Origin: Eledone cirrhosa
Taxonomy: Eukaryota
NCBI GenBank assembly: GCA_964016885.1
Contig: OZ024766.1
Coordinates: forward strand, 7,440,001 to 7,504,000
Direction: 5' to 3'
Length of the DNA stretch: 64,000 bases
Shown here: positions 25,875-62,560 of the stretch, piece by piece
How positions within the stretch are numbered: position 1 is the stretch's first letter
How the letters are laid out: each line of letters begins with the position of its first letter
Notes under the pieces: model-generated
Seen by the model: only the letters and a program-made list of their open reading frames with translations
Database searches by the model: none
Told to the model about the DNA's origin: nothing
Translations under genes and position numbers: made by a program

Positions 25875-26940
25875 TCATCATCATCATCATCCTCATTTTA
25901 CGTTCACTTTTCCCTGCTTGCAAGAGTGGGACGGGTCCTCTTCAGCACAGCACGGTCCTTCATCATCTCCGTGAGCTTCAGTGATCTGAGGGTCTGCTCT
26001 AACCACCTCCGCCCATGTTTTTCGTGGTCTTCCTCTACTGGGATTTCTTGGCACTTCTTTACCCAGCGGTCATCCTCCATGCGCATCACATGTCCATACC
26101 ATCTCAGTCTTCTTTCCTGCACACCACAGCTTATCCCTCTTATACACAGTTTCTCTCTCAACTCATCACATGTCCATACCATCTCAGTCTTCTCTGATGC
26201 ACACTACAGCTTATCCCTCTTATACACAGTTTCTCTCTCAATACATCACATGTCCATACCATCTCAGTCTCCTCTCCCACACACTACAACTTATCCCTCT
26301 TATACACAGTTTCTCTCTCAACTCATCACATGTCCATACCATCTCAGTCTTCTCTGATGCACACTACAGCTTATCCCTCTTATACACAGTTTCTCTCTCA
26401 ATACATCACATGTCCATACCATCTCAGTCTCCTCTCCCACACACTACAACTTATCCCTCTTATACACAGTTTCTCTCTCAACTCATCACATGTCCATACC
26501 ATCTCAGTCTTCTTTCCTACACACTACAGCTTATCCCTCTTATACACAGTTTCTCTCTCAACTCATCACATGTCCATACCATCTCAGTCTTCTCTGATGC
26601 ACACCACAACTTATCCCTCTTATACACAGTTTCTTTCTCAACACATCACATGTCCATACCATCTCAGTCTTCTTTCCTGCACACCACAACTTATCCCTCT
26701 TATACACAGTTTCTCTCTCAACTCATCTATGCTTGGTCGTTCACGCACGTCCAACGGAGCATGGTTGCTTCATTTCTCTCCAGCCGTCACATATCCTCCG
26801 CAGTTGCTGCCCATGTCTCACTACCATACAGCATCGCGCTCCTCACACAGGCACCATCATATAACCGGCATTTCATACGCAGGGAGAAACCCTCCTTTGT
26901 CAACAGAGGAAGGTGCTCCCTAAACTTCTTCCAACCCTAC
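25875..26940 (-). mobile_element. RTE (BovB-like) LINE 3' fragment with an internal 80-bp array (26085-26725, ~8 copies)
   Basis: Encodes ELREKLCIRGISCGVQERRLRWYGHVMRMEDDRWVKKC; ends in an (ATG)n tail. Confidence 0.9.
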
Positions 26941-27129
26941 TAGGGATCAGAGCATGCGCTTATTTATTGTATGTACAGATCAAAGTTTAAGCAAAGAATC
27001 ACTGCTTTTACCTTTTTACAGGATCTACTTGACAAACATGGTTCAAAGTTCACAACAACCACATCTGATATATATTGTATTGCAGTCGAGATCAAGGTAC
27101 ACAGATTATACTGGAGACTTTTATATATC

Positions 27130-27675
27130 ATCATCATCATCATCATTTTACTTCCGCTTTTCCCTGCTTGCACGGGAGGGAGTGGAACTGATTCTGGCTT
27201 AATTTCTACAGCTGGATGCCCTTCCTAACACCAAACTCATTTACAGTGTGTGCTGGGTGCTTTTTTTTTTTCCGTGGCACCTCCACGACCACTTTACAGT
27301 GAGTGCTGGGTGCTTTTTTTGCTGTGGCACCTCCACGACCACTTTACAGTGAGTGCTGGGTGCTTTTTTTGCCGTGGCACCTCCACGACCACTTTACAGT
27401 GAGTGCTGGGTGCTTTTTTTGCTGTGGCACCTCCACGACCACTTTACAGCGAAGGCTGGGTGCTTTTTTTGCTGTGGCACCTCCACGACCACTTTACAGT
27501 GGAATAATAGGGACTGAGGTCCTTATCATCTCATTTCTACAGCTGAGTAAACTGGAGCAATGTGAAATAAAGTGTCTTGCTCAAGGAAACAACAAACACA
27601 TCACCCGGTCTGAGAATTGAACTCACAACCTTTCGATTGCAAGCCCAATGCTCTAACCACTAAGCCATGTGCCTA
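27130..27675 (-). mobile_element. SINE with an internal ~50-bp tandem (x5)
   Basis: Same family as 20480-20818; the gtggcacctccacgaccactttacagt unit is repeated. Confidence 0.85.
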
Positions 27676-27694
27676 TATATATATATAAAATAAT

Positions 27695-27830
27695 AATTGT
27701 TTCTACGTTTGGCACAAGGCCAACAAATACCCAGTACATAACTGGTACTTTATTTTATCGACCCCGTAAGGATGAAAGGCAAAGTTAACCTCGGCGGGAT
27801 TTGAACTCAGACCATAAAGGGCCGTAACTC
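27695..27830 (-). mobile_element. Second SINE family fragment
   Basis: ctggtactttattttatcgacccc..gatgaaaggcaaagttaacctcggcgggatttgaactcag; sister copy at 43055-43230. Confidence 0.7.
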
Positions 27831-28009
27831 TATGCTGCAAGGAAATATGTATCGTATGAGAGGAGATAGAGAGACAGAGAGATGTGTGGTAGAGATTACT
27901 AGATGGCGATAGCCGAAGCGAAATGTGCTCAACGCTAGGGTTAGCAGAGTTAAATATAAGAACTTGTTATAAAGGTTAGTAATCCGTTCATCCATTCATT
28001 TGCTTATAT

Positions 28010-28240
28010 ATGGGTGAAGAAGTGCCAGGAAATGCCAGTTGACAGTTGAAGGAAGACGTAGTAAACGAAGACCAGGAAAAACATGGGCGAAGGTGGTGAG
28101 AGCAGACCTCAGATCACTGAAGCTCACGGTGGAGATGAGGAAGGACCGTGACAAGTGGAGAGATGCTGTGCTGAATAGGACCCGTCCCACCCTTGCAAGC
28201 AGGGAAAAGCGGACATAAAATGATGATGATGATGATGATA
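28010..28240 (+). mobile_element. RTE LINE 3' end
   Basis: WVKKCQ..GRRSKRRPGKTWAKVVRADLRSLKL followed by the (ATG)n tail. Confidence 0.85.
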
Positions 28241-59539: not shown

Positions 59540-59660
59540 GGTGAAGGCGTGTGGCTGAGTGGTTAGAGAATTGGATTCGCAATCGTGAGGTTGTGAGTTC
59601 AATTCCTGGACCGGGCGATGCGTTATGTCCTTGAGCAAGACACTTTATTTCACGTTGCTC
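59540..59660 (+). mobile_element. tRNA-derived SINE 5' fragment
   Basis: tggctgagtgg A box, gagttcaattcc B box, then gtccttgagcaagacactttatttcac. Confidence 0.8.
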
Positions 59661-59863
59661 CTTCTACCTGGAGTTGCGACCGATAGATAGTATTAGCAAC
59701 TGGAAAGACCAACGGAAACTTTGTTTCCTCGGTCCGATTTGACGAAAGTCGATCGTTCCTTAAATATTGTATATATAATCAATTAGATTATATGATGAAT
59801 TATGGTTGTAAGTATTTTTATCTTATTACATTACGATAGGTTATATGTATATATAAATATCTA

Positions 59864-60246
59864 TACACTGTAAATGTGGTTGGTGTTAGGAAGGGCATCC
59901 AGCTGTAGAAAACCCGCCAGACAGTCCACGCTGTAATGTGGCCGTGTAGGTAACACGGTAAAAACCTCCCAGCCCCACACTGTAAATGTGGTTGGTGTTA
60001 GGAAGGGCATCCAGCTGTAGAAAACCCGCCAGACAGTCCACGCTGTAATGTGGCCGTGTAGGTAACACGGTAAAAACCTCCCAGCCCCACACTGTAAATG
60101 TGGTTGGTGTTAGGAAGGGCATCCAGCTGTAGAAAACCCGCCAGACAGTCCTATGCGAGCAAGACAACCACTCTTGCCTCAAGTGGGAAAACTCCCGTCC
60201 AAACCCATGCAAGCGTGGAACATGGACGTTAAACGATGATGATGAT
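59864..60246 (+). mobile_element. SINE 3' half with a 112-bp tandem
   Basis: cactgtaaatgtggttggtgttaggaagggcatccagctgtagaaa x3, then tail. Confidence 0.8.
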
Positions 60247-60831
60247 ATGTATTAATAAATTGCATATGTATTAATTGTTTATATACCAAATATGAGTTAC
60301 GAATGATGTTGAAATTTTATTTTCAAGTTGTGGGAGTAGAATAATTTGTGGATTCAAAAATGTTATTCAACATTGAGAATGTTTTCAGAATATTGTTAAT
60401 TTAACGAAGCTATATCGATTATCAAACAAAAAAAATTGTTTTGTTTGCAACGATTGAGAAAGGGGAGATAACTCCAATTTTGTTTGTTAACCATTAAATT
60501 AGAGAAAAAAAAATTATATATTATTTTGTGCGAGATCCATTATTTTAGTCGAAAGATGTGTGAATGTTTGGATAACAAACAAAGAGAGGATTAAATGTAA
60601 CGCGTTTTTCGAAGAACTAACTTAAAGAGGATAAATTTTCAGAACGTCATTTAAAGATTATCAATCTACATCTAAAATATATTTATAGGGGTGTCCTTAC
60701 AAAAGAATGTCGGAATTAAAAATAATATATATATTTAAGAGTTAAACAAGGTTCAATGAATACATCAAAGAATGAGTTTTACAATAGATTGGAAGCACTC
60801 AACAGTTAAAAAGGTTTTCCAGAGTTATTAA

Positions 60832-61118
60832 TATTAATTCAAAATATTAACAAAATAGATATTCTTGTGATCAATTGTATTTTATTATACATATTTCAGA
60901 GATACTGAGTTAAGTTCAACAGTACGTCCTCATCAGATAAAATAAAATGATACATGACATAACCTGACACCCATCTACCATGTCAGGGTATGTCATGTAT
61001 CATTTTATTTTATCTGATGAGGACGTACTGTTGAACTTAACTTAGTACCTTTGAAATATGTATAATAAAATATAATTGATCACAAGAAAATCTATTTTGT
61101 TAATATTTTGAATTAATA
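60832..61118. mobile_element. Penelope-like inverted pair with divergent hammerheads (family of the 176-bp array)
   Basis: ~135-bp inverted arms around 60970; plus arm reads attttat-CTGATGA-ggacgtact..agtaccttt-GAAA-tatgt-ATA-ataaaat. Confidence 0.75.
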
Positions 61119-61144
61119 TATATACATATATATATATATAAATG

Positions 61145-62560
61145 AGGCAAGCATGCGCCATTGGATGTGCAATGTCAATGTGAGTGAACGACCGAGCATG
61201 GATATGTTGAGAGAGAAACTGTATTTGAGAGGGATACATTGTAGTGTGCAGGAGAGAAGATTGAGATGGTATGGACATGTGATGTGTTGAGAGAAACTGG
61301 GTATAAGAGGGATAAGTTGTAGTGTGCAGGAGAGAAGATTGAGATGGTATGGACATGTGATGTGTTGAGAGAAACTGGGTATAAGAGGGATAAGTTGTAG
61401 TGTGCAGGAGAGAAGATTGAGATGGTATGGACATGTGATGTGTTGAGAGAAACTGGGTATAAGAGGGATAAGTTGTAGTGTGCAGGAGAGGAGACTGAGA
61501 TGGTATGGACATGTGATGTGTTGAGAGAGAAACTGGGTATAAGAGGGATAAGTTGTAGTGTGCAGGAGAGGAGATTGAGATGGTATGGACATGTGATGAG
61601 TTGAGAGAGGAACTGTGTATAAGAGGGATAAGTTGTGGTGTGCAGGAGAGGAGACTGAGATGGTATGGACATGTGATGTGTTGAGAGAAACTGGGTATAA
61701 GAGGGATAAGTTGTAGTGTGTGGGAGAGGAGATTGAGATGGTATGGACATGTGATGTGTTGAGAGAGAAACTGGGTATAAGAGGGATAAGTTGTAGTGTG
61801 CAGGAGAGGAGATTGAGATGGTATGGACATGTGATGAGTTGAGAGAAACTGGGTATAAGAGGGATAAGTTGTAGTGTGCAGGAGAGGAGACTGAGATGGT
61901 ATGGACATGTGATCTGTTGAGAGAGAAACTGGGTATAAGAGGGATAAGTTGTAGTGTGCAGGAGAGGAGACTGAGATGGTATGGACATGTGATGTGTTGA
62001 GAGAGAAACTGGGTATAAGAGGGATAAGTTGTAGTGTGCAGGAGAGAAGATTGAGATGGTATGGACATGTGATGAGTTGAGAGAAACTGGGTATAAGAGG
62101 GATAAGTTGTAGTGTGCAGGAGAGGAGACTGAGATGGTATGGACATGTGATGTGTTGAGAGAGAAACTGGGTATAAGAGGGATAAGTTGTGGTGTGCAGG
62201 AGAGAAGACCGAGATGGTATGGACATGTGATGTGTTGAGAGAGAAACTGTGTCTGAGAGGGATAGAATGTAGTGTGCGGGAGAGGAGACTGCGGTGGTAT
62301 GGACATGTGATGTGTTGAGAGAGAAACTGTGTATAAGAGGGATAAGTTGTGGTGTGTGGGAGAGAAGACTGAGATGGTATGGACATGTGATGAGTTGAGA
62401 GAAACTGGGTATAAGAAGGATAAGTTGTAGTGTGTGGGAAAGAAGACTGAGATGGTATGGACATGTGATGAGTTGAGAGAGAAACTGTGTATAAGAGGGA
62501 TAAGCTGTAGTGTGTGGGAGAGAAGACTGAGATGGTATGGACATGTGATGCACATGGTGG
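61145..62560 (+). repeat. 78/80-bp array (~17 copies) inside an RTE LINE fragment
   Basis: Same RRLRWYGHVM unit as 26085-26725; parent sequence lies upstream (MRHWMCNVNVSERPSMDMLREKL). Confidence 0.92.

Follow-up and report, generated by a model that had tools for sequence, protein, structure and literature searches.

Tandem arrays from short RTE-like retrotransposon fragments in Eledone cirrhosa and their coincidence at a conserved coding motif

The window analysed here, a stretch of 64,000 nucleotides of Eledone cirrhosa DNA (contig OZ024766.1), consists to 35% of minisatellites (23 hand-picked arrays). Five of them contain, in their translations, the R-x-W-x-G-H motif of RTE-like elements, which raises the question of why arrays from different LINE families coincide at one homologous point of a coding sequence. 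The arrays and the elements that carry them are as follows.

36297..38129, + strand: array A, 65-bp unit in 28 copies; RTE-like island of ~75 bp
50900..54057, − strand: array B, 81-bp unit in 39 copies, within a family B element
25875..26945, − strand: family C element C1, 5'-truncated; 80-bp array of 8 copies at 26084-26727, 16-bp deletion below the array, (ATG)n tail
54545..55160, + strand: family C element C2; 80-bp array of 5 copies at 54545-54940, 16-bp deletion as in C1, (ATG)n tail
61140..62562, + strand: family C element C3; 80/78-bp array of 17 copies at 61197-62550, 3' end missing

The coordinates and translations of the arrays in a preliminary description of this DNA hold on re-analysis; its 70-bp unit for array A (36297-38125) is replaced by one of 65 bp, the spacing in 27 of 27 unit intervals. 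Relative to the motif start, the units span about -28 to +36 (A), -9 to +71 (B) and -72 to +11 (C). Their registers differ, the B unit starting and the C unit ending at the motif, and the overlap common to all three is only ~21 bp. The 80- and 81-bp junctions recur in independent public data, in a check that covered these two units rather than the 65-bp one, and are therefore not assembly artefacts; the 81-bp junction of array B was seen in X18 and X21. Public runs with a small share of matching words counted as evidence only after their reads had been aligned.

RTE-like origin of the array units

With a DNA identity in register of 33-48%, the families are distinct. The preliminary description had proposed three separate LINE sources, which stands for the families; the three 80/78-bp arrays are not independent of each other. 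The LINE origin and the homologous position of the motif are likewise supported, the origin being RTE-like and, in array A, tentative. The array A unit (5.1 bits) outscored 1000 of 1000 shuffles against the RTE C-terminal profile, over just ~22 matching codons and with no extension of the match into a flank; the best units reached 12 bits (E 0.013). Array A is identifiable as RTE-like only by the motif itself. A 9-bp direct repeat forms both its start and its end, and no LINE flank was detected beside it.

For family B, the 893-aa relative P0009 (75% identical) carries Exo_endo_phos_2 and RVT_1 domains; PMC1291365 describes the RTE clade by one long ORF with an AP endonuclease and a reverse transcriptase. 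The relatives of family C are C-terminal parts only (66-69% identity). Its 3' end consists of a stop followed by (ATG)n, that of family B of a stop followed by AT-rich tetramer-like repeats, so that both have the very short 3' UTR of 3-5 bp repeats that is a feature of RTE elements. The RTE clade is not known to have a cysteine-histidine knuckle at the C terminus, and this pattern matched in 0 of the 7 relatives checked. Matches in the ESM Atlas were limited to clusters without names. Family B may represent a sister clade of RTE.

Further pieces of families B and C are found in the window.

50750..50899, − strand: 3' terminus of the element that carries array B, below the array
54058..54150, − strand: family B sequence adjoining array B on its 5' side
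54150..54394, + strand: reverse-transcriptase piece in inverted orientation (5' inversion), from the family B element that carries array B (RVT_1 E 9.4e-5)
21070..21346, + strand: un-arrayed family B 3' copy spanning the motif
20827..21011, − strand: shorter family B 3' fragment, starting below the motif
54404..54544, + strand: family C piece lacking the 16-bp deletion, with a joint back to the start of the unit (176-bp period)
28011..28236, + strand: un-arrayed family C 3' fragment, starting below the motif

The inverted piece matches P0009 in a by-eye comparison, and contig pieces cover 54150-54390. Apart from this one reverse-transcriptase piece, the RTE-like fragments lie at profile positions 438-612 of 669, i.e. 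within the last ~170 codons, and the caveat raised at the outset, that 5'-truncated LINEs enrich 3' sequence, explains much of the coincidence. Counted from the 3' end, the motif is 220 nt away in B and 238 nt away in C, and four fragments start within ~65 nt of the motif.

Founding and growth of the arrays

The three 80/78-bp arrays have one junction register in common, their units differ by 6.0-6.2 between loci compared with 4.7-6.2 within loci, and five columns are polymorphic for the identical two alleles at all three loci. C1 and C2, the two 80-bp loci that retain the 3' end, also have the 16-bp deletion in common. Based on the common junction, polymorphisms and deletion, the five arrays likely reduce to three founding events, one per family. 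Locus-private variants are present in neighbouring units (12/16 and 7/16 units of C3, 3/7 units of C1), which argues for expansion in place.

We lean towards the explanation that the arrays are retrotransposon-derived minisatellites, founded by one microhomology duplication per family and expanded at the DNA level, with the family C array having spread ready-made. In the likely founding step, 65-81 bp of a short RTE-like 3' fragment would have been duplicated once per family between microhomologies of 4-9 bp. The duplicated unit would then have grown by unequal exchange or slippage; a non-autonomous copy probably dispersed the 80-bp array ready-made. We infer this order of events. In family C, a local, family-level microhomology hub that seeded several unit lengths is likely provided by the TG-rich stretch (His-Val-Met codons) directly downstream of the motif. 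The microhomologies observed at the junctions measure 9 bp (A), 3-4 bp (B) and 4 bp (C).

Growth at the DNA level fits the blocks of variants within the arrays of 28-39 units and the 18 further arrays of the window without an RTE match. All 18 stayed at or below 1.8 bits with the C-terminal profile and at or below 0 with a longer one, in a test built on RTE profiles rather than on those of CR1, L2, L1 or Penelope. Five window arrays derive from one segment of one SINE-like repeat.

27240..27501, + strand: comparator 50-bp array, from a dispersed SINE-like repeat with a 9-bp direct repeat at 50-bp spacing
28852-30719, 47970-48714, 56948-57730 and 63045-64000: arrays related to the comparator

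The coincidence at the motif

Under a null based on the window's short 3' fragments, an overlap of all three units arises by chance with P 0.063-0.125; for two units the value is 0.29-0.41, array A being left out since the motif alone identifies it. The same Gly-His codons are expected in three families with a chance of ~0.06 (arithmetic from codon counts), a value that counts against the favoured explanation. The families probably coincide mainly because what survives of them is short 3' ends, of which the motif is the recognisable part; short tail fragments and short chance sequence matches, rather than a common signal, likely account for most of the coincidence. The hotspot proposed in the preliminary description finds moderate support within the 80-bp family, from read junctions, while across families the in-window P is weak and a hotspot at the motif is unproven.

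Public reads of family C contain extra junctions with periods of 38, 43, 63, 82 and 84 bp. All listed tandem joints of this family span the motif, these being the top joints, found with a reference built around the units whose native run ends at +11. In the same reference-biased comparison of top joints, 5/7 downstream ends fall 8-14 bp past the motif start; this clustering within 8 bp has a uniform chance of 0.0005, which becomes 0.007 or 0.06 when related junctions are counted as one. Among the 6-7 four-base pairs whose ends lie at +7 to +14, three predict the periods 38, 43 and 80, each present in the reads. Several observations count against the favoured explanation: the clustering of the joint ends, the periods of 63 and 84 bp, which 4-bp microhomology pairs do not predict, and the contig depth over the C unit, which is 2- to 6-fold that of the adjoining 3' sequence (X18, X1), contrary to what 5' truncation gives, though conservation is also highest at the motif. 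Also against it, microhomology pairs over the motif are not enriched (C, 40/209 compared with 16% expected; B, 19/78 compared with 22%), and the hub ranks only in the top 7-14% of windows for microhomology. In favour of the explanation, the deepest single family B tandem joint listed for X18 belongs to a 33-bp unit in the reverse-transcriptase piece, away from the motif, with a depth of 650 compared with 192 and 188 for the 81-bp forms. The reads are favourable to a cross-family hotspot in C and uninformative or unfavourable in B.

More tentatively, and with lower probability, the conserved RTE-like motif may be a site where minisatellites arise repeatedly in different families and species; its codons would form a microhomology hub located as far from the 3' end as reverse transcription tends to reach before stopping, and array-bearing non-autonomous copies would spread the repeats as SVA-type elements do. 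A hotspot of reverse transcription by itself appears unlikely. The enzyme would stall ~220-240 nt from the 3' end and either drop off, giving 5' truncation, or prime again at a more 3' point of the template, and unrelated families would repeatedly acquire homologous duplications. The distances of the motif from the 3' ends, the nearby fragment starts and the clustered C junction ends agree with such stalling, as does the depth of family B, which falls more than 100-fold just 5' of the unit (X18, X1); the drop may, however, be due to the window's copy having diverged, given that depth rises again in the reverse-transcriptase piece. A metagenome scan yielded eight loci, five of them RTE-like with two probably one locus, i.e. 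four independent loci in other hosts with motif-spanning duplications of 60-81 bp, one with filler bases at the joint; yet the pattern demands the motif and was run without a control scan. The other three loci were rejected as an unrelated 30-bp repeat within an opposite-strand open frame, and the single match among viral contigs was without RTE homology and had no relatives. The differing registers of B and C, and the internal variant blocks and 18 non-RTE arrays that fit growth at the DNA level, also speak against stalling.

Less probable still is that there is no local bias, with seeds falling uniformly along the surviving LINE sequence and the motif-spanning read junctions being deletion derivatives of one founder array. 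The in-window chance values and the construction of the read reference are in agreement with this, the 38-, 43- and 63-bp units are contained in the 80-bp unit, and section 2.2 of the review PMC9659126 sees no conclusive preference for particular parts of TEs. However, the 82-bp junction includes sequence outside the 80-bp unit, organism A has junctions of 43 and 84 bp (C) and of 42 and 96 bp (B) with no exact 80- or 81-bp joint among those listed, and deletion derivatives are not expected to start 0-3 bp from the old junction three times.

The core GGACATG, described earlier as common to the arrays, is present in all three founding units, but has been lost from 16 of the 28 array A units. It occurs in 37/39 units of array B, in 8 (C1), 5 (C2) and 17 (C3) units of the family C arrays, and in 12/28 units of array A, where 12 others have AGACATG and 4 AGGCATG. 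In the 18 other arrays no exact copy was found, 5 contain it within one mismatch compared with 3.3 expected, and a search for a motif common to all minisatellite units found no excess over shuffles (GGACATG, 0 compared with 0.17; CAGGA, 4 compared with 3.5; CATG, 6 compared with 4.1). Folding into hairpins beat shuffles in 0 of 5 stretches. In array B the core sits inside a match to what we take to be a p53-type half-site pattern, but no full site was found anywhere in the window. Its codons are those used most often for Gly-His here (GGA 11/18, CAT 6/11), and the 7-mer is absent from three of the four motif-spanning duplications in other hosts. The earlier suggestion that it is a cis signal, a recombination or protein-binding site driving or selected in the arrays, is very improbable.

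Relation to known tandem repeats

TE-derived minisatellites are an already known kind of repeat, and the arrays described here likewise repeat, head to tail, units of tens of bases with matches to a dispersed TE. Section 3.3 of Ahmed and Liang 2012 (PMC3389668) describes hotspots within TE consensus sequences, and transposition as a means by which a pre-formed repeat spreads. In the AluS and LTR12 repeats treated there, as here, tandem repeats lie inside TEs, some at preferred consensus positions and some flanked by short direct repeats, and transposition can spread a pre-formed repeat. The hotspots reported in that paper are per family only, whereas the source here is RTE-like LINE coding sequence, with three distant families overlapping at one homologous point. 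Microhomology-mediated tandem duplication, as outlined in PMC13167724, duplicates a segment between short homology arms, which may then expand. The arms here measure 4-9 bp, and a short direct repeat borders the duplicated segment at both ends, except in the 63- and 84-bp joints; unlike in that system, the B and C arms reach just 3-4 bp and occur in unremarkable numbers, and some read joints carry extra bases. The truncated RTE 3' fragments of Lepidoptera, which spread simple repeats (PMC2887409), resemble those of the window in being abundant short copies that retain the end of the C-terminal coding sequence plus a tail of short repeats, but the repeats reported in that text are microsatellites in the 3' tail, compared with units of 65-81 bp inside the coding region here. 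HinfI (from CR1) and PROsat (from L1) are also tandem repeats from LINE coding sequence, each a single large satellite unlike our arrays (PMC9659126, PMC6947457); an RTE case among LINE ORF2-derived satellites has 0 occurrences in the searched passages of these two reviews. A direct precedent was not found in a literature search outside which most subscription papers and supplements lay.

If the explanation is an ordinary one, the locus shows the conversion of short fragments of LINEs and SINEs into minisatellites in a repeat-rich animal genome, and shows that a non-autonomous LINE can carry an array along. If the cross-family bias is true, protein-level constraint would predict birth sites of tandem repeats and would offer a direct test of reverse-transcription slippage versus DNA-level duplication. 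Among 164 relatives searched for in-frame duplications, five proteins contain RTE-internal duplications of 71-186 aa, which cover the motif in some of them only.

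Arrays, source elements and the probable history of family C

Tandem Repeats Finder recovers all five arrays that the preliminary description had named in the window:

26084-26727, array C1 (family C element on the minus strand), 80 bp x 8
36297-38129, array A, 65 bp x 28
50900-54057, array B, 81 bp x 39
54545-54940, array C2 (family C, plus strand), 80 bp x 5
61197-62550, array C3 (family C, plus strand), 80/78 bp x 17

The unit translations over the motif, an R-x-W-x-G-H coding stretch near the C terminus of RTE ORF2, are as first described, while the 70 bp given for the array A unit was wrong, the spacing being 65 bp in 27 of 27 cases. 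The proposed origin from different sources also holds: compared in register on the motif, the DNA identity of A, B and C is only 33-48%, hence we treat them as separate families. In this register their units overlap by ~21 bp.

The sources of B and C are RTE-like non-LTR retrotransposons, of which the arrays retain the 3' ends. A family B relative (75% identity) has a single 893-aa frame with endonuclease and reverse transcriptase (RT) domains, relatives of family C show 66-69% identity, and an un-arrayed family B copy with the GGACATG core lies at 21070-21346. Both families terminate in a stop and, after it, a short-repeat tail, as in the RTE elements described in PMC1291365. For A the assignment is weaker. 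Its unit outscores 1000 of 1000 shuffles against the RTE C-terminal profile, with a match of only ~22 codons, and no extension of this match was found in the array flanks; therefore, A was recognisable by the motif alone. The sequence directly before array A (36251-36290) matches 20106-20145 (85% over 40 bp) and, as this second copy is not followed by the motif, is probably a separate dispersed repeat. A repeat of 150 bp, present x2.3 at 35579-35932 immediately before array A, contains runs of ATC and TGCGCATGCGCA-like palindromes.

The three C arrays have a single junction register. Comparing units from different loci gives 6.0-6.2 base differences, versus 4.7-6.2 for units of the same locus. 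At five columns an identical pair of alleles segregates in each of the three loci; two of the five make up one CpG-type site. A 16-bp deletion 3' of the array is common to C1 and C2 and absent from two other family C pieces. Local growth is indicated by certain variants that are confined to a single locus, in 12 of 16 and 7 of 16 C3 units and in 3 of 7 C1 units. The simplest reading would be that a single founder array was dispersed by a non-autonomous copy and afterwards grew locally; alternatively, the arrays may have originated repeatedly at the same microhomology.

A frequent SINE-like repeat has its last ~55 bp in common with family C (1978-2031, 20478-20530, 27130-27181, 56876-56931, 58295-58337) and was therefore likely mobilised by the family C LINE. 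The 48-, 50- and 128-bp arrays come from the middle of this repeat.

Junctions in public reads and other hosts

Four public read runs were mapped to 53977-54625, a stretch with a single B unit and a single C unit, and the best-supported 15 of 98 joints plus the best 12 of 172 with inserted letters were examined. In organism I the 81-bp junction is present in 2 contigs (51 reads) and the 80-bp junction in 8 (533 reads). For the 80-bp junction, the RAD run has 533 crossing reads versus ~39,000 that continue natively; hence, most copies near the cut site are not arrayed. Among the best-supported joints, further C tandem joints were found in organisms I (38, 63 and 82 bp) and A (43 and 84 bp), and further B joints in organism A (~96 bp in two forms, and ~42 bp); for family B the region visible is the unit and the sequence 5' of it. 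A 33-bp B joint, seen in organism I at a depth of 650, falls within the RT piece and misses the motif.

Including the 80-bp joint and the 176-bp joint of the window, 7 of 7 C joints (for the reads, the best-supported ones) span the motif and 5 of 7 end at +8 to +14 bp from its start. This clustering has a uniform chance of 0.0005, or 0.007 to 0.06 with related joints merged, in a test biased by a reference built around the units, whose native run stops at +11. That all five new C units lie over the motif has a chance of 0.013, or 0.18 if just two are independent. Periods of 38, 43 and 80 are predicted by four-base microhomologies ending in the +8 to +14 window. A rival account of the arrays, in which the reverse transcriptase stalls and re-primes a set number of bases from the 3' end, is unlikely. 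In organism B (run X2), contig depth at the motif (54593-54625) is ~43,000 versus at most 4,100 in the preceding bins, reflecting a very high-copy repeat that shares just these ~35 bases.

Scanning JGI metagenomes with a sequence pattern yielded eight loci. Five are RTE-like, probably four of them independent, with 60-81 bp duplications over the motif in 2-3 copies. Motif-spanning seed duplications thus exist in other hosts; as the pattern requires the motif, these loci are silent on enrichment. The other three are unrelated. In L002, L003 and L005 an open frame contains a 30-bp repeat, and the latter two loci also have RT-like sequence at a distance of ~4 kb; the RWFGHM-like repeat read on the opposite strand is treated as chance.

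Chance expectation of the overlap and possible mechanism

The minisatellite background in the window is high: 23 arrays hand-picked from the Tandem Repeats Finder list cover 22,399 bases (35%). Five of them derive from one segment of a single SINE-like repeat, in which a 9-bp direct repeat is spaced like its 50-bp unit. The caveat that 3' sequence is enriched is borne out, as all RTE-like fragments found, except one RT piece, map to positions 438-612 of the 669-position profile.

With units placed randomly on these fragments, whose bounds were set by hand, an overlap of A, B and C has P of 0.125 or 0.099 in one simulation and of 0.107, 0.092 and 0.063 for overlaps of 1, 7 and 20 bp in another; B and C alone give 0.29-0.41. 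In this coverage-normalised positional test, confined to the window, P thus spans 0.063-0.125 for three units; the overlap first described stands, and the cross-family hotspot of tandem amplification proposed from it is doubtful. That there is no bias whatever seems distinctly unlikely to us.

GGACATG, proposed as a shared core and possible binding site, occurs in 12 of 28 array A units and exactly in none of 18 other arrays of the window (5 of 18 with up to one mismatch versus 3.3 expected). It is the commonest Gly-His spelling here, and no unit forms a better fold than its shuffled versions do. We do not regard the core as a signal, and a cis signal as driver of the arrays is very improbable.

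What was observed directly are the units, the microhomologies at their junctions, the variants that are shared or locus-specific, and the extra read junctions. On balance, we lean towards a scheme in which duplications would be seeded by microhomology, arrays would grow at the DNA level and the C array would be carried to new loci by retrotransposition; the cross-family overlap would mostly reflect 3'-biased coverage and recognisability, and family C would harbour a TG-rich hub that is genuine but local. In the literature covered, which leaves out most subscription journals, we found no account of arrays arising from this RTE motif. The arrays belong to a known kind, TE-derived minisatellites, for which PMC3389668 describes within-family hotspots and dispersal of pre-formed repeats; microhomology-mediated duplication is an established seed of repeats according to PMC13167724, and short RTE 3' fragments are abundant according to PMC2887409.

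Family B structure and neighbouring repeats

The family B element (50750-54394) has a 5' inversion at ~54150 and lacks its middle, which we take to be the shape expected of twin priming. At 54087-54152 the depth of family B in runs X18 and X1 is ~100-1000x below that over the unit; this fits a short derivative of high copy number that begins at ~54085, as does the copy at 21070, or else a window copy that is divergent there. A 302-bp unit in three tandem copies (41860-42775), with TATA-like and AATAAA words, is similar in look to a tandem of solo LTRs. At 20827-21346 two family B 3' fragments on opposite strands stand head to head, forming a 185-bp inverted repeat, and a 60-bp TA-rich tract separates their 5' ends. 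A TA tract adjoins 5 of 6 RTE-like 5' ends checked (21070, 21011, 54401, 61140, 28011; two share one tract); target choice, or deletions that occurred later at microsatellites, could account for this.
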